64,000 bases of DNA from Bacteroidota bacterium (GTDB lineage: Bacteria; Bacteroidota; Bacteroidia; UBA8524), in contig JAKFCJ010000207.1 of the NCBI GenBank assembly GCA_036676705.1, positions 15-64,014 on the forward strand, written 5' to 3'. Made by a program: the position numbers and the translations under genes. Below the pieces are notes generated by a model that searched no databases, was not told the DNA's origin, and worked only from the letters and a program-made list of their open reading frames with translations. Positions 299 through 64,000 of the stretch are shown here, piece by piece; the first letter of the stretch is position 1, and each line of letters starts with the position of its first letter.

Positions 299-1810
299 CT
301 AGTTGGTAATTTTTAGCAAAAGCAGATCCTGCCCAGGGAAATAGAGAGCCGTATCGTGGTAGAACGAGTCGGGAATGGCATTATACCCGTTATATCCGGC
401 GTATTCCCGCTTGTCTGTGTAGATATAATAATAATCAACTTTCGCCATACGAACACTATCCGCATCGCCCTGTATTAGTTCCACCCAGGGATAGTTGTTT
501 GTATTTTTCACATGCCTCATCGAGACGTTAATGATCCAGCTATGGTCGAGATAAAGCGTATCCTGCCTTTGTTGCCCTTCTTTGTTCAGGTAATCCATGA
601 CCTCCTCCGATCTCGCGTCGAAAGGCCAGGAATAGCTATAACTCAGGTTCGCCAAATGTACAAAGTTGACAAGGGCCGCCAGGCTCAGGATAGTCATGCC
701 AGACAAGGCAATTTTTCCATACGGCTTATCCACCGCCAATTCGCAGGCAGCAAGCACCATCCAGACCAGGGGCAGAAGAAATACCAGCGCGGTTCGCTCG
801 ACTAGAAATGGCGTTCTGAAAAGTTGGTTTTGGAGCAGGGATGAAAGGCAGAGCATGACAAAAAGCAACGCGAACATGAAGAAAGGTGTTCCTAAACTTT
901 GTTTGGGCGCCTTTTCCTTCCTCAGGTAAATGAGGCAGCTCAGGACCAGCTGAAGGGCGATGGTCAGCAGGACGAAATGGGCAATGCGATCCGGCGTTTC
1001 GAAACCCATAATTCCGAGAAATAAGGAAGTGAATGTATCATAGACCAGGCCGGTTTGGCCCCCATACCAGAGTTCATCGCCCAGTCTTAACTTGATGATG
1101 GGCTTAATGATAATGGCGAAAAGGATAAGCGTGGGAATTGCAAGGCCTGAGGTTAAGGTTGAGGTTGGGTGCCTGCCGTAACGCAGGGGAAGGAGGGAGG
1201 GTTTTATCCAGGCCAGGTAAACGAGAACGGGAAGGAGGGCCAGATAGAAATTAAGCCAGGTGAAATTGGCGAGGACCGCGAGGGCAGCAAAGGTTAAGGT
1301 TAAGGTTGCGTGCCCGCCGAAACGCATGTGAAGGCGGGAGGTTGAGTGCCCGCGGTATTGGTCCAGGTAATAGAGACTCGCTGTGGTGAATGCGAGGGCC
1401 ATTCCGTAACCCCGGGTGAGGCTGAAAAATTCGAGCAGAAAGGGATTGAAAAAGCAGAGCACAAAAGCCATGACCTGCAGGGAAGTTGAAGACAGCCTGC
1501 GCAGGAGCCGGATACTGAACCAGGCATAAAGTAAAAATGCCAGCACGTTTGGAAGCCGGTAGAGGAAGGGTTCTGACAAGGCGAACAAGGTTTTGTTCTG
1601 CTGAATCAGCCAGACAAAGAGTGAATTCAACAGATGGGAATTCGAGCCAAGGCCCTGGTAGGTGAAGATATCGGTAAATGTGCGGTCAGCAAGGGAATCA
1701 ATCGTCCAGAGTTCGTCGTAAGTGAGCGGAATGACCGTTGCCCGCAGGATGACATAAATGAAACAAAGAAGTGCGGCAAGCTGTGGCCAATAAGGGATCC
1801 ATTTCTTCAT
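299..1810 (-). CDS. Polytopic membrane glycosyltransferase, GT39/GT83-like (ArnT/PMT-type). An N-terminal loop carries a DE motif (PLTYDELW)
   Basis: 503 aa with more than 10 predicted TM helices. The DE motif is in the first periplasmic loop. The protein contains an internal nucleotide-level duplicated segment. Confidence 0.55.
   Translation of the reverse strand: MKKWIPYWPQLAALLCFIYVILRATVIPLTYDELWTIDSLADRTFTDIFTYQGLGSNSHLLNSLFVWLIQQNKTLFALSEPFLYRLPNVLAFLLYAWFSIRLLRRLSSTSLQVMAFVLCFFNPFLLEFFSLTRGYGMALAFTTASLYYLDQYRGHSTSRLHMRFGGHATLTLTFAALAVLANFTWLNFYLALLPVLVYLAWIKPSLLPLRYGRHPTSTLTSGLAIPTLILFAIIIKPIIKLRLGDELWYGGQTGLVYDTFTSLFLGIMGFETPDRIAHFVLLTIALQLVLSCLIYLRKEKAPKQSLGTPFFMFALLFVMLCLSSLLQNQLFRTPFLVERTALVFLLPLVWMVLAACELAVDKPYGKIALSGMTILSLAALVNFVHLANLSYSYSWPFDARSEEVMDYLNKEGQQRQDTLYLDHSWIINVSMRHVKNTNNYPWVELIQGDADSVRMAKVDYYYIYTDKREYAGYNGYNAIPDSFYHDTALYFPGQDLLLLKITN
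1151..1204. repeat. Intragenic copy A of the GGTTRA-hexamer plus GC-hairpin mini-element
   Basis: ggttaaggttgaggttgggtgcctgccgtaacgcaggggaaggagggagg is about 85 percent identical to copy B at 1291..1345. Its hexamer head is shared with the intergenic elements at 47914 and 62872. Confidence 0.5.
1291..1345. repeat. Intragenic copy B of the GGTTRA-hexamer plus GC-hairpin mini-element
   Basis: ggttaaggttaaggttgcgtgcccgccgaaacgcatgtgaaggcgggagg. It has a cccgcc/ggcggg stem. Confidence 0.5.
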
Positions 1811-28719: not shown

Positions 28720-28727
28720 GGAAGTCG

Positions 28728-28800
28728 ACGGTCAACAGACTACAGTCAACAGAATTATTCCAGGTTACTAAAAGCGCAAAAAACTGTTGACCGTTGTCTG
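28728..28800. terminator. Inverted-repeat structure between convergent genes, a candidate bidirectional terminator
   Basis: cgacggtcaacag ... ctgttgaccgttg inverted pair, with four gtcaacag/ctgttgac copies. Confidence 0.35.
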
Positions 28801-28811
28801 TCGACCGTTGA

Positions 28812-30737
28812 CTACAAATCCTCCGTCACCCCTTCATACAACTCCTCTATTTCCATCGCGTATTTGGACTCAATGATCCTTCGTTTGGATTTGAGGGTTG
28901 GTGTGAGTTCCCCTTCTTCTACACTAAAGGGTTTTCTTTTGAGAACAAAGTTTTTAATGCGTTCAAATTTCGCCAGTTCGTTGGATAGTTTGCGAATGTC
29001 TTCGTTCATCCACAGGATCATTTCTTCATTGCGGATAAATGGGTCCGTTTCTTCAAAGAAGGCATCGTTTACCCCGAACTTTTCTTTGAGCTCCTCTTTG
29101 GCAGGCACAATGATGGCCGTAATAAATTCGCGCCGGTCGCCGATCAAAAAGAGCTGTTCGATCTTCGAACTTTTCATATAGATGTTCTCAACCGGTGTCG
29201 GATAGATATTTTTTCCATATGCATTCACCAACATGTTTTTGATGCGGTCAGTGATTTTCAGGTAACCGTGGTGGAATTTGCCCACGTCGCCGGTATGGAA
29301 CCAGCCGTCCTTATCGATCACGGCTGCGGTGTCTTCGGGTTTGTTCCAGTAGCCCATCATCACGGAAGGTCCTTTTACAACAATTTCGCCTTCTTCGCAG
29401 GTGAATTTCGGATCGAAGGTCTCCCGGGTTTGGATGGTATAAAATTCTCCATTGTCTTTGTTGATAATGCCAACCTGCAACTCAGGTACGATGGCTCCTA
29501 CCGTTCCGTAAACCTGTTTTTCTTCTAAATTGATAGAAATGAGGGGAGAAGTTTCAGTGAGTCCGTACCCTTCCAGTGCAGTAATACCCAGATTGCCAAA
29601 AAATTCACCGACATGCTGGGGAAGCGCTGCCCCACCGGAAACAAGAAGACGCATTTTTCCGCCCAAACGGGCTTTCACTTTTTTAAAGACCAGGATGGAG
29701 GCGAGTTTGTGTTGCGCCGCGAGAAGCGGACTGACCCATTTCCCATGTTCCTTCTTTACCCTTACTGTTTCCCCAATACCAACCGCCCAGTAGAATATTT
29801 TTTTGCTCAGGCCGCCTTTGGTCTCGGCGCTTTTGATCACCCGTTCTTTGACCCTTTCCAAAAGGCGGGGCACCGTGGTCATAACCGTAGGCTGAACTTC
29901 CGTCATGTTGGCGGAAAGGGATTCTATACTCTGGGCAAAGGCGATCTCGGCACCTACATAAATACCAAGATAGTAGGTTGCGAGGCGTTCATACACGTGG
30001 CAAAGCGGTAAAAAGGAGAGGTAACGGTCGTCTTTGCTGATGGAAGGCACGGTGGTTTTGGCCATCCATACATTGCTCATAAAATTTTCATGGCTCAGCA
30101 TTACACCTTTGGGAACACCTGTAGTACCCGAGGTATAAATAAGGGAAGCCAGGTCCTTGGGGCCTATCGACTGAAATAAGGCTTCGATTTCCTCCCTGTT
30201 TTTCGCATAAAGGTCTTTCCCCATGGCAAACAGGTCGACCAGAGAAACCAGGCGCGGGTCGTCCGATTTGGCATTGGCCTTCGGGAAGTTCAGGAATATG
30301 GCCTTTACATCGGGACAATTTTGGACAGCCTTCAGTACTTTTTTTAAGAGGAAAGGATTACCGACCAAAACACCTTTGGAACCTGAATCTTTGATGATGT
30401 ATTCAATTTCAGATTCGGGAAGGGTAGGATAAATGGAGGCGTTTACACAACCTATTTGGAGTAGTGCCTGATCGAAAATGAGAAATTCCGGACAGTTTTC
30501 AAGAATGATCGCCAGGCGGTCGCCTTTGGTAAAGCCATGTTCGACCAAATAGGCACTTACACTGTTTATCCGGTCAAGGATCTCCCCATAAGAAAAAGAG
30601 ACATAAGTCCCTTCGATTTTCTGCATCAAAAAGGTGTCCTGTGCTTTTTTCGTGTACTGAATCGTGTCACGAAGCATTTGGTGCAGGGAATTGGGTAGAT
30701 TCATGGCAGTCTGGTTAGAGGTTTGTGCAAAATACAA
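28812..30737 (-). CDS. Long-chain fatty acid--CoA ligase (AMP-binding family)
   Basis: TSGTTGVPKGVMLSHENF AMP-binding motif, 641 aa. Confidence 0.85.
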   Translation of the reverse strand: MYFAQTSNQTAMNLPNSLHQMLRDTIQYTKKAQDTFLMQKIEGTYVSFSYGEILDRINSVSAYLVEHGFTKGDRLAIILENCPEFLIFDQALLQIGCVNASIYPTLPESEIEYIIKDSGSKGVLVGNPFLLKKVLKAVQNCPDVKAIFLNFPKANAKSDDPRLVSLVDLFAMGKDLYAKNREEIEALFQSIGPKDLASLIYTSGTTGVPKGVMLSHENFMSNVWMAKTTVPSISKDDRYLSFLPLCHVYERLATYYLGIYVGAEIAFAQSIESLSANMTEVQPTVMTTVPRLLERVKERVIKSAETKGGLSKKIFYWAVGIGETVRVKKEHGKWVSPLLAAQHKLASILVFKKVKARLGGKMRLLVSGGAALPQHVGEFFGNLGITALEGYGLTETSPLISINLEEKQVYGTVGAIVPELQVGIINKDNGEFYTIQTRETFDPKFTCEEGEIVVKGPSVMMGYWNKPEDTAAVIDKDGWFHTGDVGKFHHGYLKITDRIKNMLVNAYGKNIYPTPVENIYMKSSKIEQLFLIGDRREFITAIIVPAKEELKEKFGVNDAFFEETDPFIRNEEMILWMNEDIRKLSNELAKFERIKNFVLKRKPFSVEEGELTPTLKSKRRIIESKYAMEIEELYEGVTEDL

Positions 30738-47316: not shown

Positions 47317-47919
47317 TTGAGCATGAATTTGGATTTTTTTAAAAAGGATAAGGTATTTTATGATGCGATAAAACACATAACATTACCTGACTACACTCCT
47401 TCTGATAACTATTTTCATTACCTGCTGAGGGCCATCGCGTTCCAACAACTTTCCGGCAAAGCCGGAGCCACCATTCATGGCCGTTTTCTACAGCTTTTTC
47501 CCGATCAGAATCCGGAACCGGGTTTTTTACTTGAACTGGAACATGACGCATTGCGCGGCGCAGGACTATCAGGACAAAAAGCTGCCTACATGAAAAATAT
47601 AGCCGATTTCTGGCTGAAAGAAAGCCTGACAAATGCAAAGATCGATCGCCTTGGCGATGAGGATATCCTGGATTATCTTACCCAGATCAAGGGCGTAGGC
47701 AAATGGACGGTTGAGATTTTCCTTATGTTCGGCATGGGCAGGCCTGATCTGTTTCCGCTCGACGATCTGGGTTTGCAGCAGGGTGTTGCCGGTATTTATG
47801 GCTTGAATCACCTGCCCTTAAAAGAACTCAAAAAGGAAATGGTTCGTATATCGGATGGATGGAGGCCACATCGGACCAAAGCGGCGCTTTATGTTTGGAG
47901 ATGGAAAGATGGAGGTTAA
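47317..47919 (+). CDS. HhH-GPD DNA glycosylase (AlkA-like DNA-3-methyladenine glycosylase II)
   Basis: GVGKWTVEIFLMFGMGRPDLFPLDDLGL (HhH-GPD with a catalytic Asp). Confidence 0.75.
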   Translation: MSMNLDFFKKDKVFYDAIKHITLPDYTPSDNYFHYLLRAIAFQQLSGKAGATIHGRFLQLFPDQNPEPGFLLELEHDALRGAGLSGQKAAYMKNIADFWLKESLTNAKIDRLGDEDILDYLTQIKGVGKWTVEIFLMFGMGRPDLFPLDDLGLQQGVAGIYGLNHLPLKELKKEMVRISDGWRPHRTKAALYVWRWKDGG

Positions 47920-47981
47920 GGTTAAGGTTGAGGTTGAGGTTGAGGTTGAGGTTGAGTGTCGGGGCAGAAAATCTTCTGCCC
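47914..47981. repeat. (GGTTAA)2(GGTTGA)5 hexamer array plus the GGGCAGAA/TTCTGCCC hairpin. It acts as a bidirectional terminator element between convergent genes
   Basis: Seven perfect tandem hexamers. The first one contains the alkA-like stop codon. An 8-bp stem hairpin lies at 47962..47981. Confidence 0.7.
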
Positions 47982-47995
47982 TTGATGCGGGGGAG

Positions 47996-48901
47996 TTATA
48001 AATTCAGTAAAGTGTAGTACACCCCGTCGATCACCTTACCCATTCTGTATATATCAAGGGTTTCCAGGGTATCTGTTTTTCTGTGATAATTTTTATTTCG
48101 ATAGAAGGAAGTATCAGTGAGCATGAGGGCACTAAAACCGAATTTCCAATAGTTCCTATGGTCGGAATAGTCGATCCCGGGAACGAGTTTGGGAGCGGTG
48201 AATTTTTTTGTTCTTACTGATTTTGTGGAGACATAACGTCTTGAAAATTTACGCGCAAATTTTCCGGATCCGAATTTTTTTACCAGGGTAATGTAATTTC
48301 CTTTTTTGCCATAAAACCATGAAAGCAGGCCTATTGGATAGGCTTGTGAACCCGGCTCGTCCTTAAAGCAGGCGATCATCTCCAGAGAGACCATTCCATA
48401 TACAGGAATCTCAGCATCAGCAAGGGACTTTGCATGGACATAGCTGCCCATATTTTCGGTCCTGAAATAAGGGGGTTCTTCAAGGGTATATGCCACAAGA
48501 TCGATACGATGGTTCAATGCCTTTCCTTTTAACAGCCTTGCCAGCTCCAACAAACCCACAACTCCACTGGCATTATCGTCAGCTCCTTCCTGATTGCCGC
48601 AAACATCGTAATGGGCACCAACGATGATCCTTTTCATGTGTTCAGTTCCGAATGAACAGATCACATTTTTGTAGACGAATCCGTTGACCGTATATTCCTG
48701 AAAAAAAACACTGTCGGTATATAGGAGGAAAACAGCTCTTATATAATCGGCTGTTTTGTTGAGCTGAGTGATGTTTTGATAGGTTCGCGGAGTATCCGTT
48801 TTTGTAATGGCAACCAGGTGAGTCCGGATAATGGCAGTGTCGGAACCTGTGCCAAAAACCAATAAAGGAGCAAGAAGCAGAATTAAAAGAAGGGCCCTCA
48901 T
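47996..48901 (-). CDS. M28 family zinc aminopeptidase, secreted
   Basis: HYDVCGNQEGADDNASGVVGLLELAR with a signal peptide. Confidence 0.8.
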   Translation of the reverse strand: MRALLLILLLAPLLVFGTGSDTAIIRTHLVAITKTDTPRTYQNITQLNKTADYIRAVFLLYTDSVFFQEYTVNGFVYKNVICSFGTEHMKRIIVGAHYDVCGNQEGADDNASGVVGLLELARLLKGKALNHRIDLVAYTLEEPPYFRTENMGSYVHAKSLADAEIPVYGMVSLEMIACFKDEPGSQAYPIGLLSWFYGKKGNYITLVKKFGSGKFARKFSRRYVSTKSVRTKKFTAPKLVPGIDYSDHRNYWKFGFSALMLTDTSFYRNKNYHRKTDTLETLDIYRMGKVIDGVYYTLLNL

Positions 48902-51300: not shown

Positions 51301-51610
51301 ATTCGGGAGGTGTTTTCTATTCATGAGAACCACTGATAGGGGTTCAATATAGGTGAGCGAGGGTGAAATTTCCAATTTTTGGGTTGGTTAGGTTGTTATT
51401 TTTCAAACAACCGAATGGCATATCATAATGAATGGAAGGGATCCAATAGTCTCCTATCGATTTGACCGGTAGCTTTTGCGGATATGATGAGAACTGAAAT
51501 GGTACCGGCAACTACCTCGAAGAAACGGAGCGATAAAGACGAGGGTAATTTCATGGTTGATCGTTAATACCGAAACCTTGAATTAGTCAACACAGATAAT
51601 GGGTTTTTTT

Positions 51611-52023
51611 GATCCGACTCAAACATTCTTTTTTGCGGGTAGGTGTCCCACCGACCCGCACTCAAGCGGGAGAAGGGACTGCAGGAATTTCCTTCTCATT
51701 CGAGGAAAAGAAATGTGAAAGTTTTTAGTGGTTCCGGACGAAATTGTTGATCCGACCGTCAAGTTGATCCGCAGAGTAGAAGCGATTCGGTGGGACACCG
51801 AACCGCTAAAGGTTTTTTTTGATCCGACTCAAACCGGCCTTTTGCGGGTAGGTGTCCCACCGACCCGCACTCACCAGCGGGAGAAGCGACTGTAGGAATT
51901 TCCTTCTCATTCCAGTAAAAGAAATGTGAAAGTGTTTAGTGGTTCCGGACGAAATTGTTGATCCGACCGTCAAGTTGATCCGCAGAGTAGAAGCGATTCG
52001 GTGGGACACCGAACCGCTAATGG
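51611..52023. repeat. Two tandem copies of a ~205 bp structured repeat, each bounded by ~25 bp inverted repeats (gcgggtaggtgtcccaccgacccgc ... gcgattcggtgggacaccgaaccgc)
   Basis: Units 51611..51812 and 51821..52023 are more than 90 percent identical. Each has internal hairpins such as gagaag...cttctc. Confidence 0.8.
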
Positions 52024-52102
52024 ATTTTGATTTACGAAGTGATATTTTGACATTCTCACGACATAGTTGGCTGAAAAATGACCGTGAACTAACATTCCAA
52101 TC

Positions 52103-52609
52103 GTGAACTTAGTGTTTATGATTGAAACCAAATTTTTCACGGCCGTTGTAGAAAAAAGGAAGCCAATATTTGATGTGGATGGAGCGGATTTTATTAAAGT
52201 AATTGAAGGCTCTCTTGGCTATTTTTCAGCTAAAGCGCAATTTCAACTACATGCCTATGCTATAATGCCGAACCATGTTCATTTTTTGTATAGTGAGCCG
52301 AAGGACGGTGATTTATTTAGAGTTCCATTCATAAGGTTTACTGCGCATGAAATATTGAGATTAAACATTGGCCGGCCAATGAACAAAAGAGTTGATTTTG
52401 TAGTAAATAAGTCGGATAGAGTCGAGCAAGTTTGGCGTAGAAAATCAAAGACCATTCTGGTCAAAGATGAAAGGGTATATTTTGCCGTTCTCAACTATAT
52501 CCGGAAAAACACAGAGTCTGTTTTTTGGAAAGAAAGTATTAATCGACTAGCATTGGAACCCAGAGTACCATGCGTATCACGCGATTGGAAAAGTAATTTA
52601 CCAAACTAA
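52103..52609 (+). CDS. IS200/IS605-family HuH-Y1 transposase, RAYT-like (REP-associated tyrosine transposase)
   Basis: HuH motif MPNHVHFL and a downstream Tyr in NYIRKN at about +75 aa. 168 aa. It is flanked on both sides by the structured repeats. Confidence 0.6.
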   Translation: MNLVFMIETKFFTAVVEKRKPIFDVDGADFIKVIEGSLGYFSAKAQFQLHAYAIMPNHVHFLYSEPKDGDLFRVPFIRFTAHEILRLNIGRPMNKRVDFVVNKSDRVEQVWRRKSKTILVKDERVYFAVLNYIRKNTESVFWKESINRLALEPRVPCVSRDWKSNLPN

Positions 52610-52905
52610 GATCCCTTTTTTGCGGGTAGGTGTCCCACCGACCCGCACTCACCACCGGGAGAAGCGATTGCAGGAATTTCCTTCTCATTCGAGTAAAAGA
52701 AATGTGAAAGTGTTTAGTGATTCCGTACAAAATTGTTCATCCGACCGTCAAGTTGTTCCGGAGCGTAGAAGCAATTCGGTGGGATACCGAACCGCTAATT
52801 ATTTTTTTGATCTGACTCAAACATTCTTTTTTGCGGGTAGGTGTCCCACCGACCCGCACTCACCCGGGGGAGAAGCGATTACAGGAATTCCATTCTATAT
52901 CCAAG
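52610..52905. repeat. A further 1.5 copies of the same ~200 bp structured repeat, immediately downstream of the transposase
   Basis: Unit 52610..52800 is 5'-truncated. The partial unit 52809..52905 restarts with gatctgactcaaacattc. Confidence 0.8.
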
Positions 52906-54681: not shown

Positions 54682-56004
54682 ATGGACGTGTGGATGTATT
54701 TGCTGATCGGGTTGGCTGCCGGAGGAATGGCCGGGTATTTTTTTGCCATAGCCCGAAAACTTAAGGAAGGCGAATCCCTTCAATCCATACAAATTGAAAA
54801 AGCACGGGTCGAACAAAACCTGCAGGCTGCCGAAAACAGAAGAGCGGAGTTGGAACGCCGGCTTCTGGAACTCGAATCCTTTAACCAAACACTGTTGCAT
54901 GAAAACGCAGTGTTGAAAACCGAAGGACTCGGATTGCAGCAACGCATGGCCGAACAAAAAGAGGAGCTGGAAAAACTGAACGAACGTATGTCGCTGCAAT
55001 TCAAGAATCTGGCGAACGAGATCCTCGAAGAAAAAAGCAAAAAATTCACCGACCAGAACAAGATCAATATCGGGGAACTGCTTAACCCGCTCAAAGAGAA
55101 AATCGGCGAGTTTGAAAAGAAGGTAGACGAAAGCAACAAGGAAAATGTACGCATGAACAGTTCCCTTGGTGAACAACTCAAGAACCTGAAAGAACTCAAT
55201 CAACAAATTACCAAAGAAGCGGAGAACCTCACCCGGGCGCTGAAAGGCGATACCAAAACACAGGGAAACTGGGGGGAATTTATCCTTGAAAAAATTCTCG
55301 AACGAAGCGGACTGGTCAAAGGACAAGAATTTATCGTTCAGGAAAGTACCACTATGGAAGGCGGCCGGTTGCGACCCGATGTGGTCATCAAACTGCCCGA
55401 TAACAAGAATATTGTCGTTGACTCCAAGGTGTCACTGACAGCCTATGAACAGGCCATGAATGCAGGGGATGATGTTGAACGGGCCATGCATATGAAAATG
55501 CACGTTCAATCCATCAAAAATCATATCCGGCAACTCTCTTCCAAAGATTATCAGAAACTTTACGGTGTAGAAGGATTGGATTTTGTGCTTCTTTTCATTC
55601 CCATCGAACCGGCTTTCAGCTCAGCCCTGCAGGCAGAATCCGACCTCTTCAACCAGGCTTATGAAAAGCAGATCGTGTTGGTAAGTCCGAGTACGTTGCT
55701 GGCTACCCTGCGTACCGTGGCAAATATCTGGCGTTACGAATACCAGAACCGAAACGTGCTCGAAATAGCGCGTCAGGCCGGGGATATGTACGATAAGTTC
55801 GTCAATTTTTCGGAAGACCTGATCAAGTTGGGTGTTCAGATGGATACCTCAAAAAAGACCTATTCCGACGCCATGAACAAGCTCGTTGATGGGTCCGGAA
55901 ACCTGATCCGCCGCGCAGAAAAACTCAAGGAGTTGGGGGCTAAGACGTCGAAGCAGATGAATGATAAATTGTTGGACAGGAGTGAGAGTGGAAGTGAAAA
56001 GTGA
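54682..56004 (+). CDS. rmuC: DNA recombination protein RmuC
   Basis: N-terminal TM helix, long coiled coil, and the C-terminal RmuC domain LVSPSTLLATLRTVANIWRYEYQNRN. Confidence 0.85.
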   Translation: MDVWMYLLIGLAAGGMAGYFFAIARKLKEGESLQSIQIEKARVEQNLQAAENRRAELERRLLELESFNQTLLHENAVLKTEGLGLQQRMAEQKEELEKLNERMSLQFKNLANEILEEKSKKFTDQNKINIGELLNPLKEKIGEFEKKVDESNKENVRMNSSLGEQLKNLKELNQQITKEAENLTRALKGDTKTQGNWGEFILEKILERSGLVKGQEFIVQESTTMEGGRLRPDVVIKLPDNKNIVVDSKVSLTAYEQAMNAGDDVERAMHMKMHVQSIKNHIRQLSSKDYQKLYGVEGLDFVLLFIPIEPAFSSALQAESDLFNQAYEKQIVLVSPSTLLATLRTVANIWRYEYQNRNVLEIARQAGDMYDKFVNFSEDLIKLGVQMDTSKKTYSDAMNKLVDGSGNLIRRAEKLKELGAKTSKQMNDKLLDRSESGSEK

Positions 56005-56063
56005 AAAGTGAAAGGCAGCTATTGCTTAAAGCCTGCAGCCTATAGCCTATAGCCTATAGCCAT
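55994..56063. repeat. Tandem heptamers (GTGAAAA)x3 then (AGCCTAT)x3, spanning the rmuC stop codon
   Basis: Direct inspection. The rmuC TGA stop lies inside the second GTGAAAA. Confidence 0.6.
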
Positions 56064-61784: not shown

Positions 61785-61956
61785 TACGTCAGCTAAAAGG
61801 TTGATTTACAGTAAAAAGTAAAAAATTTATAATTTTTTTACGTTCCGGGCAACATTTGGCAAAATAAGTGCATCATCTTTGTACCGGAGTTAACCACTCT
61901 GTTCGTTCTTTTTAAAATCTCTTCATAGAGTTTTGGTTTGGTTTGGTTTTACAAAG

Positions 61957-61981
61957 GCGCTCTTCGGAGCGCTTTTTTTTT
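61957..61981 (+). terminator. Rho-independent terminator
   Basis: GCGCTC-ttcg-GAGCGC stem followed by T9. Confidence 0.6.
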
Positions 61982-61993
61982 ATCTTGCGCCCT

Positions 61994-62869
61994 ATGCGAT
62001 CTGGCCTGTTTATACTAATTGTAAGTACCCTTATTTCTTGTTCCACGCCTAAAGTCATGAACCAATCGGGTCGGGTAACACCAAAGGGAACAGTTGTCGG
62101 GGGAATTACCTATATGGCCAATGTTTCGCAGGAAAGCTCTGTACGGATGAGCGATGTCTTAAAAAATCAGATCAAAAATTTTAGCAGCGGCGATACCGTT
62201 CAATACGACCAGTTCCTTAGTGATGCCAATGCGGCCATTGTGGCATATGCCGTCGACCCGATCGCTTTTGGTCCACAGTTTTATTTGAGAGTAGGGGTTT
62301 GGGATCGCCTGGAATTGGGGTACACCCGCGCAAAGGGAACCAACATGTTCAGTGCACAAGGTCAGTTCATGGGATTTGAAAAGGAAAGAATTGAGGAGAG
62401 TAAAAAGCGCTGGTTTGGAAGTGGCGGCGTACAATACTCCTGGAATTCATACAACCTCCCCAATTTTTTCGGCAAAATGCAAGACAGATTTGGTTTTGAA
62501 TACAAACGCCGTGATTTTCTGCTTCCTTTTACTTTTTCCTATTCACTTGGTCCGAACGAAACCTATGGGGCGATAGGATTTGGTGCTGTTGTCGGCTTTC
62601 ATCGTATCGACTATTCCTTCCTTCCCGACAGGATCGTCAACGACAAAGGTGTTGTGCTAAAGCCTGGGAATCACACCAATAAATTCAGTTCCATAGGATT
62701 TTTTGTGAATGTGAAGGCAGGTTATAAGTTTGTCTATATCATTCCTTCCATTGCCGTCTATTACCAGCAGTATGGAACCTATCCGTTACTGGACCGGTCT
62801 TCCTTGTTTTTGGAGGGTTTCACCTTCGTTCCGGGGATCAGCTTGCAATTGAATACGATGCGGAAATAG
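61994..62869 (+). CDS. Lipoprotein, hypothetical (beta-rich)
   Basis: The internal start MRSGLFILIVSTLISC gives a lipobox. The upstream Met would overlap the terminator. Confidence 0.45.
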   Translation: MRSGLFILIVSTLISCSTPKVMNQSGRVTPKGTVVGGITYMANVSQESSVRMSDVLKNQIKNFSSGDTVQYDQFLSDANAAIVAYAVDPIAFGPQFYLRVGVWDRLELGYTRAKGTNMFSAQGQFMGFEKERIEESKKRWFGSGGVQYSWNSYNLPNFFGKMQDRFGFEYKRRDFLLPFTFSYSLGPNETYGAIGFGAVVGFHRIDYSFLPDRIVNDKGVVLKPGNHTNKFSSIGFFVNVKAGYKFVYIIPSIAVYYQQYGTYPLLDRSSLFLEGFTFVPGISLQLNTMRK

Positions 62870-62871
62870 GT

Positions 62872-62934
62872 GGTGTAGGTTGTAGGTTGTAGGGGCAGAA
62901 GATTTTCTGCCCCTACAACCTACAACCTACAACC
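62872..62934. repeat. About 30-bp perfect palindrome built from (GGTTGTA)x3 plus GGGGCAGAA/TTCTGCCCC. It is a bidirectional terminator overlapping the uvrB stop
   Basis: tggtgtaggttgtaggttgtaggggcagaa gatt ttctgcccctacaacctacaacctacaacc. The uvrB TAG lies inside the right arm. Confidence 0.75.
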
Positions 62935-64000
62935 CTGTTTCGCCGGCCAACTTCTCCTTCAAGCCCATCAACTCATCCCGCAGCCGGGCGGCGCTCATAA
63001 AATCCAACTCTTTGGCGGATTTTAACATGGCTTTTTCCGTTTCGCTGATCGCCTTTTTCAGTTTGTCACCGGTCAGGTATTTCATGATCGGGTCGGCTGC
63101 GACAGAATTTGTTTCCTCGGGCTCGACGTATATTTTCGCGATCGCTCCTTTATAGTCGACAACAGAGGTTTGTTTCATAATGGCTTCTCTCGACTTGAAA
63201 ACCGTTGTCGGGGTGATGCCATGTTCGGTATTGTAGGCGATTTGTTTTTCGCGACGGCGGTTGTTCTCTTCAATGGTTTTGGCCATGCTGTCGGTCATCC
63301 GGTCGGCATACATGATCACTTTACCACGCTGGTTCCTGGCAGCCCGGCCTATGGTTTGCGTGAGCGAACGGGCACTGCGTAAGAAGCCTTCTTTGTCGGC
63401 ATCCATAATGGCAACAAAGGAAACTTCAGGCAAATCAAGTCCTTCCCGCAGCAGGTTAACCCCAACCAAAACATCAAATTCGCCCAAACGCAAGCCGCGT
63501 AAAATTTCAACACGTTCGAGGGTTTTTACTTCGGAGTGGATGTATTGGCAACGAATCCCGAGGCGCGACATGTATTTGGTCAGTTCTTCGGCCATTCTTT
63601 TGGTGAGGGTTGTTACAAGGATACGGTCGCCCATTTTGATGCGGTCGTCGATCTCTTCCAAAAGATCATCGACCTGGTTCAGCGAGGGACGAACCTCAAT
63701 GACCGGATCAAGCAGGCCCGTGGGGCGAATGATCTGCTCCACCACCACGCCATCTGACTCTGCCACTTCAAAATCAGCGGGAGTAGCTGAAACATAAATA
63801 ACCTGTTTGATGATGGAATAAAACTCATCAAAGGTTAAAGGGCGGTTATCCATTGCCGCAGGAAGCCGGAATCCATAATCGACCAGATTGATCTTGCGCG
63901 AACGGTCTCCTCCATACATGGCCCTTACCTGAGGGATGGAAACATGGCTTTCATCCACCACCAGTAAAAAATCATCCGGAAAATAATCCATCAAACAAAA
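62927..64000 (-). CDS. uvrB: Excinuclease ABC subunit B, C-terminal part. The gene continues past the window end
   Basis: Helicase C-terminal motifs TIGRAARN and UVR domain [15 protein letters not shown]. Confidence 0.9.

Follow-up and report, generated by a model that had tools for sequence, protein, structure and literature searches.

Two intergenic hairpins in a Bacteroidota contig are probably REP elements of a double-foot family, one of them adjoining a hexamer microsatellite

Among the REP elements described so far, those of TnpA_REP subclass 2.4 come closest to the hairpins reported here. This subclass is the same as RAYT group 4 in Bertels et al. 2017. Its members abound in Bacteroidetes and Cyanobacteria and are found here and there among the remaining phyla, and in-frame REP insertions between HuH and Y are unique to it (Quentin et al. 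2018, PMC6006769). According to the same authors, its REPs have a “double foot”, with 5′ GT[AG]G and 3′ C[TC]AC, and their table includes GTAGGGGCGAAAAATTTTTCGCCCCTAC from Caldilinea (28 nt, loop AATT) and GTAGGGGCAGAATAATATTCTGCCC from Cyanobacterium aponinum. GTAG REPs in general were found mainly between convergent and unidirectional ORFs, where they often touch stop codons (Di Nocera et al. 2013, PMC3733652). In the 64-kb stretch of DNA analysed here, referred to below as the window, a hairpin core occurs at two sites, and at one of them it is preceded by an array of perfect hexamers. We propose that the hairpin is probably a REP of the subclass 2.4 type, the cognate repeat of a clade of RAYT proteins, and that the hexamer array is a slippage microsatellite in its flank. 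The features of the two sites, designated site 1 (47958–47985) and site 2 (62889–62916), and of their surroundings are as follows.

47317–47919, plus strand: HhH-GPD base-excision glycosylase gene (Pfam, E 5.8e-9)
47914–47955, plus strand: hexamer microsatellite (GGTTAA)2(GGTTGA)5 (from sequence, TRF and the ORF end at 47919)
47958–47985, plus strand: putative decayed REP copy, GTcGGGGCAGAA-AATC-TTCTGCCCttga, agreeing with the consensus at 20 of 24 specified positions
47996–48901, minus strand: M28 peptidase gene in convergent orientation to the glycosylase gene (ORF end at 47996)
61943–62869, plus strand: 308-aa ORF without family match, with a TAG stop codon 4 nt ahead of the long hairpin
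62874–62931, no strand assigned: extended hairpin with 27-nt arms, 100% complementary (from repeat search, TRF and fold)
62889–62916, minus strand: intact 28-bp double-foot REP, GTAGGGGCAGAA-GATT-TTCTGCCCCTAC, agreeing with the consensus at 24 of 24 specified positions
62927–63994, minus strand: 3′ part of uvrB, cut by the window end (NCBIfam UvrB, E 1.3e-155)

At site 1, the first-pass annotation had described seven perfect GGTTRA hexamers that run into an 8-bp-stem hairpin between convergent genes, with the first hexamer supplying the stop codon of an alkA-like gene, and all of this was confirmed. Two GGTTAA units (47914–47925) are followed by five GGTTGA units (47926–47955), TRF places its top-scoring short-period array there (47912–47956, period 6, 7.5 copies, score 76), and the ORF of the gene, which codes for the HhH-GPD glycosylase, ends with the TAA at 47917–47919, within the first hexamer. 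The array leads through the spacer GTGTC into GGGGCAGAA-AATC-TTCTGCCC at 47961–47981, a hairpin with an intact 8-bp core stem in which a ninth pair, G·T, is also kept. Its feet read GTCG on the left, in place of GTAG, and TTGA on the right, where CTAC has been lost, and no GT[AG]G foot is present in 47958–47985. The minus-strand RNA folds at −13.4 kcal/mol (z = −4.25), and the M28 stop codon lies 14 nt past the last core base (47981) and 10 nt past the 28-mer (47985). The same M28 protein is carried together with the hairpin by Logan contig L001 (1.3 kb; 100% identity over 1345 nt), which breaks off within the hexamer array and constitutes the sole other record of this protein. No record of the glycosylase, or of the 308-aa ORF of site 2, was present in the databases searched, and a locus-specific pattern with 4–9 hexamers yielded no match in the metagenome collection.

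The hairpin core had also been reported to recur at 62892–62913, flanked by GGTTGTA heptamers, and this proved correct, with the addition of mirrored TACAACC repeats that had not been noticed earlier. The core of site 2 is GGGGCAGAA-GATT-TTCTGCCCC, its loop being AATC when read on the minus strand, and the REP to which it belongs (62889–62916) has both the 5′ GTAG, in agreement with the GT[AG]G foot of GTAG REPs, and the 3′ CTAC. This REP forms the tip of the 62874–62931 hairpin, which has a left arm of GGTTGTA heptamers (TRF 62874–62893, 2.9 copies) and a right arm of TACAACC (62912–62934, 3.3 copies), and folds at −64.7 kcal/mol (z = −14). Site 2, too, sits between convergent genes, 61943–62869 (+) and uvrB 62927–63994 (−), and the uvrB stop codon (62927–62929, minus strand) falls in the right arm of the long hairpin. 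The nearest database UvrB is only 75–78% identical to the product of the window's uvrB. UvrB matches at about 70% identity bear Sphingobacteriales-like names.

The two cores are one sequence placed in opposite orientations (loop AATC versus GATT). They have an identical 21-mer; counting the ninth pair as well, 21 of 22 bases agree. Both copies have stems of 8–12 bp and a 4-nt loop, as expected of the short palindromes of GTAG REPs, and both occupy an extragenic location, as GTAG REPs do. When the window was searched for GGGCAGAA-N4-TTCTGCCC with up to two mismatches, 2 matches were obtained against 0.06 expected, and no further REP copies, intact or degenerate, could be found in the 64 kb over the shuffle background. 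A search for GGTTRAGGTTRA returned 13 matches (1.14 expected), six of which are the hexamer array itself, while four are located at 1151–1168 and 1292–1309, inside a minus-strand ORF. The GGTTRA runs at 1148–1167 and 1290–1307 are coding (TLTLT in a 503-aa ORF without a Pfam match) and were set aside as unrelated. Rfam at gathering thresholds gave no match in the whole window.

We sought the family in 185,579 species-representative bacterial and archaeal genomes with the pattern GGGGCAGAARATYTTCTGCCC, for which about one match is expected in 1.2e12 positions, and obtained, among the matches listed, at least 115 loci that come from about 60 assemblies. The earlier suggestion of a dispersed REP-type family is borne out across other genomes, with 2 copies within the window itself. 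The hosts, among the matches listed, are mostly Bacteroidota (Chitinophagaceae, Saprospiraceae and Flavobacteriales, with the isolates Flavipsychrobacter and Parasediminibacterium), and further ones include Ignavibacteria, Kapaibacterium, Methylococcaceae, Sphingomonadales, Cyanobacteria, PVC, Caldilineaceae and others; up to 25 copies per genome are present in other genomes among these matches. The taxonomic breadth leans heavily on metagenome bins, which may be contaminated; some REP copies are found on contigs 0.4–1.6 Mb long, which speaks against binning error as its sole cause. Phages were also considered as a vector and rejected, the 28-mer being present on 1 viral contig only.

The boundaries of the repeat were determined from 141 copies of the 20-mer core in other genomes, in which the feet could be counted independently of the search pattern, from which they are absent. 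GTAG is found directly 5′ of the core in 82 of the 141 copies, CTAC directly 3′ in 75, and both feet in 45; the foot bases are each about 77% conserved, background level is reached beyond position −5, and the flanks are unrelated from copy to copy. The stem base of the family is GGGG/CCCC. Since the feet are conserved and conservation ends right outside them, we take the family unit to be the 28-bp palindrome GTAGGGGCAGAA-(A/G)AT(T/C)-TTCTGCCCCTAC. Judged by its sequence, site 2 is a well-supported member of this double-foot family, and site 1 is best read as an older, decayed copy that has lost its feet, because its 21-nt core is identical to that of site 2. The window would then hold one intact REP (62889–62916) and one decayed copy (47958–47985).

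The gene context of the copies could be classified at 80 sites, with 25 between convergent, 44 between tandem and 11 between divergent genes. Convergent arrangements are thus enriched (25/80 versus 66/394 background gaps), which is the same bias as described for GTAG REPs (Di Nocera et al. 2013, PMC3733652). The BIME-like organisation that had been proposed along with the REP assignment did not materialise: each window site is a single REP, and there is no cluster of alternating orientation. REP arrays in Loclat_bin-03441 are head-to-tail direct repeats with a period of 47–53 bp, again without alternation of orientation; a CRISPR-like reading of these arrays was ruled out, as the “spacers” are themselves repeated. 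Five loci with conserved sequence beside the REP were compared with Rfam and gave one tRNA and nothing else.

To find a cognate enzyme, ORFs around the copies were clustered and then searched by tblastn over 115 blocks of at most 8 kb. Twelve of the 115 listed blocks encode one Y1/HUH protein clade, compared with about 0.2 expected for a single-copy gene. The proteins are about 175–230 aa long, with the HUH motif MPNHVHGIIEL and the Tyr motif WQRNYYEHIIRNE; they match NCBIfam REP_Tyr_transpos (REP-associated tyrosine transposase) with E 6.8e-16 and 58.5 bits, below the cut-off of 80, and Pfam Y1_Tnp with 22.3 bits, below the cut-off of 23. The palindrome is located inside the called ORF in 8 of the 12 blocks, or in 9 if L115 is included on the basis of tblastn coordinates. 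There it is in frame and reads VGAENFLPL; being a palindrome, it encodes this peptide on both strands. It lies between both motifs where both exist, as between NHVHGIIEL and FQKMIPRS...WQRNYYEH in L011, L042, L062, L083, L100, P0122, P0124, P0135 and others. In L102, L041 and L035, the palindrome falls a short way outside the region of the gene that was matched. The contig end cuts two of these three genes, and in L102, which has the only complete one, the REP precedes an insert-free gene by about 60 nt.

Relatives of the clade number at least 7,994 at E ≤ 1e-10, and many were named “RayT” by JGI. They have a hypervariable insert at the same place (VGAENFLPL, VGVENFQPL, VGVQNFEPL, and VGANQHLP in Capnocytophaga), often with several inserts per protein, and tandem-repeat peptides are often found beside the inserts. 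As far as sequence can tell, the clade bears the hallmarks of TnpA_REP subclass 2.4 (RAYT group 4); we assign it there because of the in-gene REP, regarded by Quentin et al. as unique to the subclass, and because of the similarity of the REPs. In the 64-kb window, tblastn found no member of this clade. The one RAYT-like gene that the window does contain (52103–52609) is unlikely to encode the cognate enzyme, with about 23% identity to the VGAENFLPL clade; it is flanked by a REP of a different sequence, which is found only around that gene.

The function initially ascribed to the hairpins was that of bidirectional terminators. In the canonical intrinsic sense it found no support: the stems of sites 1 and 2 are followed by no T-run on either strand (site 1 has the tails TTGATGCG and CGACACTC, site 2 has ACCCTGTT and CACCACCT), and the terminator scan calls neither hairpin. 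We therefore consider it very improbable that the two are locally evolved bidirectional intrinsic terminators of convergent genes that became alike by convergence, even though both fold stably and lie between convergent genes a few bases from the stop codons. Local convergence is, moreover, untenable because the same 21- to 28-mer, with its GTAG/CTAC feet, is present in about 60 unrelated genomes and in a transposase gene. A secondary role in the formation of transcript 3′ ends is possible for both hairpins; once transcribed, they would probably serve, as 3′-end structures, to stabilise RNA or to attenuate transcription, and not act as canonical terminators.

We next consider the tandem repeats, taking as a short tandem repeat any array with a period of 4–21 and at least 2.5 copies within 40 nt of a REP copy. 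Such arrays accompany 26 of the 141 copies (18.4%), and what looks like a 5-fold excess over all positions (3.7%) is gone when random intergenic positions from the same loci are used as the control (16.7%); a REP-specific association was thus rejected. Intergenic microsatellites, often heptamers, are common in these genomes, and the window has two arrays of its own, at 28723–28813 and 55981–56061, that are not connected to any REP. Because the family-wide unit ends at the 28-mer, we place the hexamer array in the flank, outside the unit. The (GGTTRA)7 array is most likely a microsatellite within a lineage-specific head, and would have arisen by replication slippage. The opposite view, in which the array is functional in itself, as a G-rich (GG-N4)n structure, a protein-binding array or a series of back-up stops, and the hairpin is merely adjacent, is barely credible. 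It could appeal to the perfection of the seven units and to the in-frame TAA or TGA that each of them places downstream of the HhH-GPD gene (GGT TAA / GGT TGA), but such stops follow automatically from the GGTTRA unit, on the plus strand the array does not fold better than shuffled sequence (z = −0.56), and unrelated heptamer arrays exist both at the two REP-less positions in the window and in other genomes.

It is also conceivable, though in our judgement unlikely, that in this lineage array and hairpin form a composite unit that is mobile or renews itself, namely a REP-tipped hairpin with GGTTGTA/GGTTGA arms of variable number. Both window copies have these near-identical GGTTG(T)A repeats directly 5′ of the AATC-oriented core, and in the Kiruna, Alinen and KR lake bins a low-complexity head of about 110 nt, rich in heptamers and octamers, is conserved beside the REP at no fewer than six loci. 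Partial tandem duplications of the REP occur in L009 (a 16-nt half-REP repeated 7.6 times), L025 (GGCAGAA heptamers), L108 and P0132 (VGAENVGAENVGAENFLPL), and a perfect extension of at least 4 bp past the 28-mer was observed in 5 of 45 copies, as opposed to 0.18 expected. However, conservation across the family stops at the 28-mer, tandem repeats are found beside REPs at the intergenic background rate, the junction between heptamer head and REP, GGTTGTAGGTTGTAGGGGCAGAA, has no match in the metagenome collection, and the comparison involves two copies, with the array of site 1 being one-sided. The variable short-repeat head envisaged in the first-pass annotation thus survives in part: a GGTTG(T)A head is present on the same side of both copies and has a counterpart of about 110 nt in another lineage, but it is neither included in the conserved unit nor enriched over other intergenic DNA. 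That the REP tips a composite hairpin, with GGTTG(T)A arms which either travel along or grow at the hairpin through slippage or through template switching, strikes us as decidedly unlikely.

If the hairpins are, as we favour, subclass-2.4-type REPs with a microsatellite in the flank of one copy, the GTAGGGGCAGAA-N4-TTCTGCCCCTAC palindrome would fold as single-stranded DNA, and the RAYT is thought to cut and rejoin the folded palindrome at its GTAG foot. We infer that the REP is mobilised by RAYT in this manner, and would in this way reach further positions at gene 3′ ends, most of them extragenic. The copy at 62889–62916 would represent an intact one, which caps a longer perfect hairpin, and that at 47958–47985 an older one from which the feet have gone. 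The (GGTTRA)7 array is related to the GGTTGTA repeats of the other copy, which suggests that copying of the REP in this lineage also took in a GGTTG(T)A head.

The immediate outcome is a corrected annotation, in which the two intergenic hairpins are putative REP elements and not terminators. In addition, a 28-bp REP variant is documented together with its transposase, with an identical core in about 60 assemblies listed, which belong to at least 8 phyla by label and are mostly metagenome bins, and it illustrates how a REP lodged in its own RAYT gene can pass from one lineage to another as a single package. Outside Proteobacteria, REP families have been little studied, and the sequence is therefore a useful marker. 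Both the kind of element and its in-gene arrangement have already been published, so that the conceptual gain is small, and the exact sequence is a new variant. Should the composite reading turn out to be true, the window would display REP-tipped microsatellite hairpins of variable length at the 3′ ends of genes, and REPs would be linked mechanistically to intergenic heptamer arrays of the STRR type.

Cyanobacterial STRR are reportedly tandem heptanucleotide arrays in intergenic DNA. The intergenic heptamer arrays of the window (GGTTGTA, AGTCAAC, AAGTGAA and CTATAGC) resemble them, and the STRR host phylum, Cyanobacteria, also carries subclass 2.4 RAYTs; STRR differ in unit sequence and hosts and are not known to be linked to REPs, and the resemblance serves as a lead only. 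The long hairpin of site 2 recalls the REPINs of Pseudomonas in being made from REP sequence (Bertels and Rainey 2011, PMC3116915). REPINs are non-autonomous elements dependent on a single-copy RAYT, and consist of two inverted REPs with a spacer, which together form one hairpin; site 2, in contrast, has one REP at the tip and microsatellite arms. E. coli REP/BIME elements are likewise extragenic, GTAG-footed hairpins at the 3′ ends of genes, but they have a single foot and imperfect, bulged stems, and their several hundred copies are clustered in BIMEs with defined linkers, whereas the present palindromes are perfect, have two feet and stand singly. The transposase clade and E. coli TnpA_REP belong to the same Y1/HUH superfamily, with only remote similarity between them (best PDB match 4ER8, E 0.076).

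Closest of all are the subclass 2.4 elements of Quentin et al. (PMC6006769), from which the window departs in that one of its copies is footless and the other is embedded in tandem-heptamer arms, and in having no cognate transposase gene within its 64 kb. The exact GGGGCAGAA-arm sequence is absent from their table and from the searchable literature, where only unrelated primer matches were found; the two table entries quoted at the outset deviate from the present REP by a single mirrored pair or by their loop. Several features are shared: the REP is a 28-nt palindrome with a 12-bp stem that includes the 5′ GTAG and 3′ CTAC, it has G-C pairs at the stem base and a 4-nt A/T-rich loop, and it occurs chiefly in Bacteroidetes and Cyanobacteria, with a scattering of other phyla. 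The double foot of the subclass is carried by site 2, and its in-gene insertion is found in related genomes.

The window holds a second RAYT-like gene, which is accompanied by a REP of its own. Its product shares ~23% identity with the VGAENFLPL clade (Y1/HUH RAYT transposases, in most of which an in-frame REP is read as VGAENFLPL), and repeat units of ~211 bp lie on both sides of it, the entire region occupying positions 51597-52900:

52103-52609, plus strand: RAYT-like gene, 168 aa (NCBIfam REP_Tyr_transpos, E 2.6e-11)
51597-52028: ~211-bp repeat units on one flank, 2.1 copies
52615-52900: further copies of the ~211-bp units on the other flank

Each unit includes a GTAG-footed hairpin, GTAGA-AGCGATTCGGTG-GGA-CACCGAACCGCT, together with an inverted partner, and within the window this REP is confined to the surroundings of the gene, which may belong to subclass 2.6 (RAYT group 5).

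The main-family REP, a 28-bp GTAG palindrome, was followed in other genomes in blocks of up to 8 kb around its copies (L-numbers below). In the MAG Loclat_bin-03441, 2-4 copies of it follow one another head to tail in tandem arrays whose period is 47-53 bp. The linkers are C-rich and themselves repeated, e.g. TATCACGTTCCAACCAACCACCCC, and a CRISPR reading of these arrays was rejected because the would-be “spacers” are repeats. Elsewhere, parts of the REP itself are tandemly duplicated, once within a RAYT protein, which suggests slippage at or within the palindrome.

L050 2095-2260, L039 6583-6720, L038 5912-6035, also L031, L076 and L105: tandem REP arrays of Loclat_bin-03441
L009 1445-1565: 16-nt right half of the REP, 7.6 repeats
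L025 1667-1710: GGCAGAA heptamers from part of the REP
L108 5546-5577: CTTCTGCCC, part of the REP, 3 repeats
P0132 (VGAENFLPL-clade homologue): VGAENVGAENVGAENFLPL, part of the REP, within a RAYT

In a Sphingomonadales MAG, two different contigs (L003 1844-2004 and L070 7466-7813) end in reading frames homologous to RAYT genes, possibly two halves of one gene, and the REP is located within these frames. Long arrays with a 15-bp unit, in 8.5 to nearly 12 copies, flank it there; the units differ between the sides and translate into DDGDV… and IRTHG… repeats.

At at least six loci from three boreal-lake bins, a ~110-nt head composed of CACAAAG/CACTAAG and AACAATAG repeats is retained on one side of the REP (alignment A1); together, head and REP look like a larger non-autonomous element with the REP at its end. 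At several other loci, the REP is directly followed by a ~100-nt conserved sequence (…CATGGCATGGGAATTATGGGGAGGATACATGGAAATGTTGATTAAAAGTCC…TTGGCACGCGCGCAAGGGATTGGAGAGGAAAGCCCACAGCGCC) with no match in Rfam; the L020 copy of this sequence sits within a gap of 1.2 kb, upstream of an ORF labeled by eye, from its translation, as aldehyde:ferredoxin oxidoreductase-like.

L018, L029, L057 (two copies), L079, L114: ~110-nt head
L020 2612-2720; L085, L092, L107, L109; reverse strand in L098 and L103: ~100-nt post-REP sequence

Short GGTTRA runs at window positions 1148-1167 and 1290-1307 were considered as kin of the intergenic (GGTTAA)2(GGTTGA)5 array at 47914-47955, and rejected as coding and unrelated: they lie within a 503-aa minus-strand ORF without a Pfam match, and translate to TLTLT/TSTLT in two similar hydrophobic segments.

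Two more intergenic regions of the window contain tandem heptamers without a REP. In one (28723-28813), between convergent genes, AGTCAAC-type units build the 30-nt arms of an imperfect hairpin; the other (55981-56061), between genes on the same strand, contains (AAGTGAA)3 followed by (CTATAGC)~6. Both are reminiscent of the STRR repeats of cyanobacteria.
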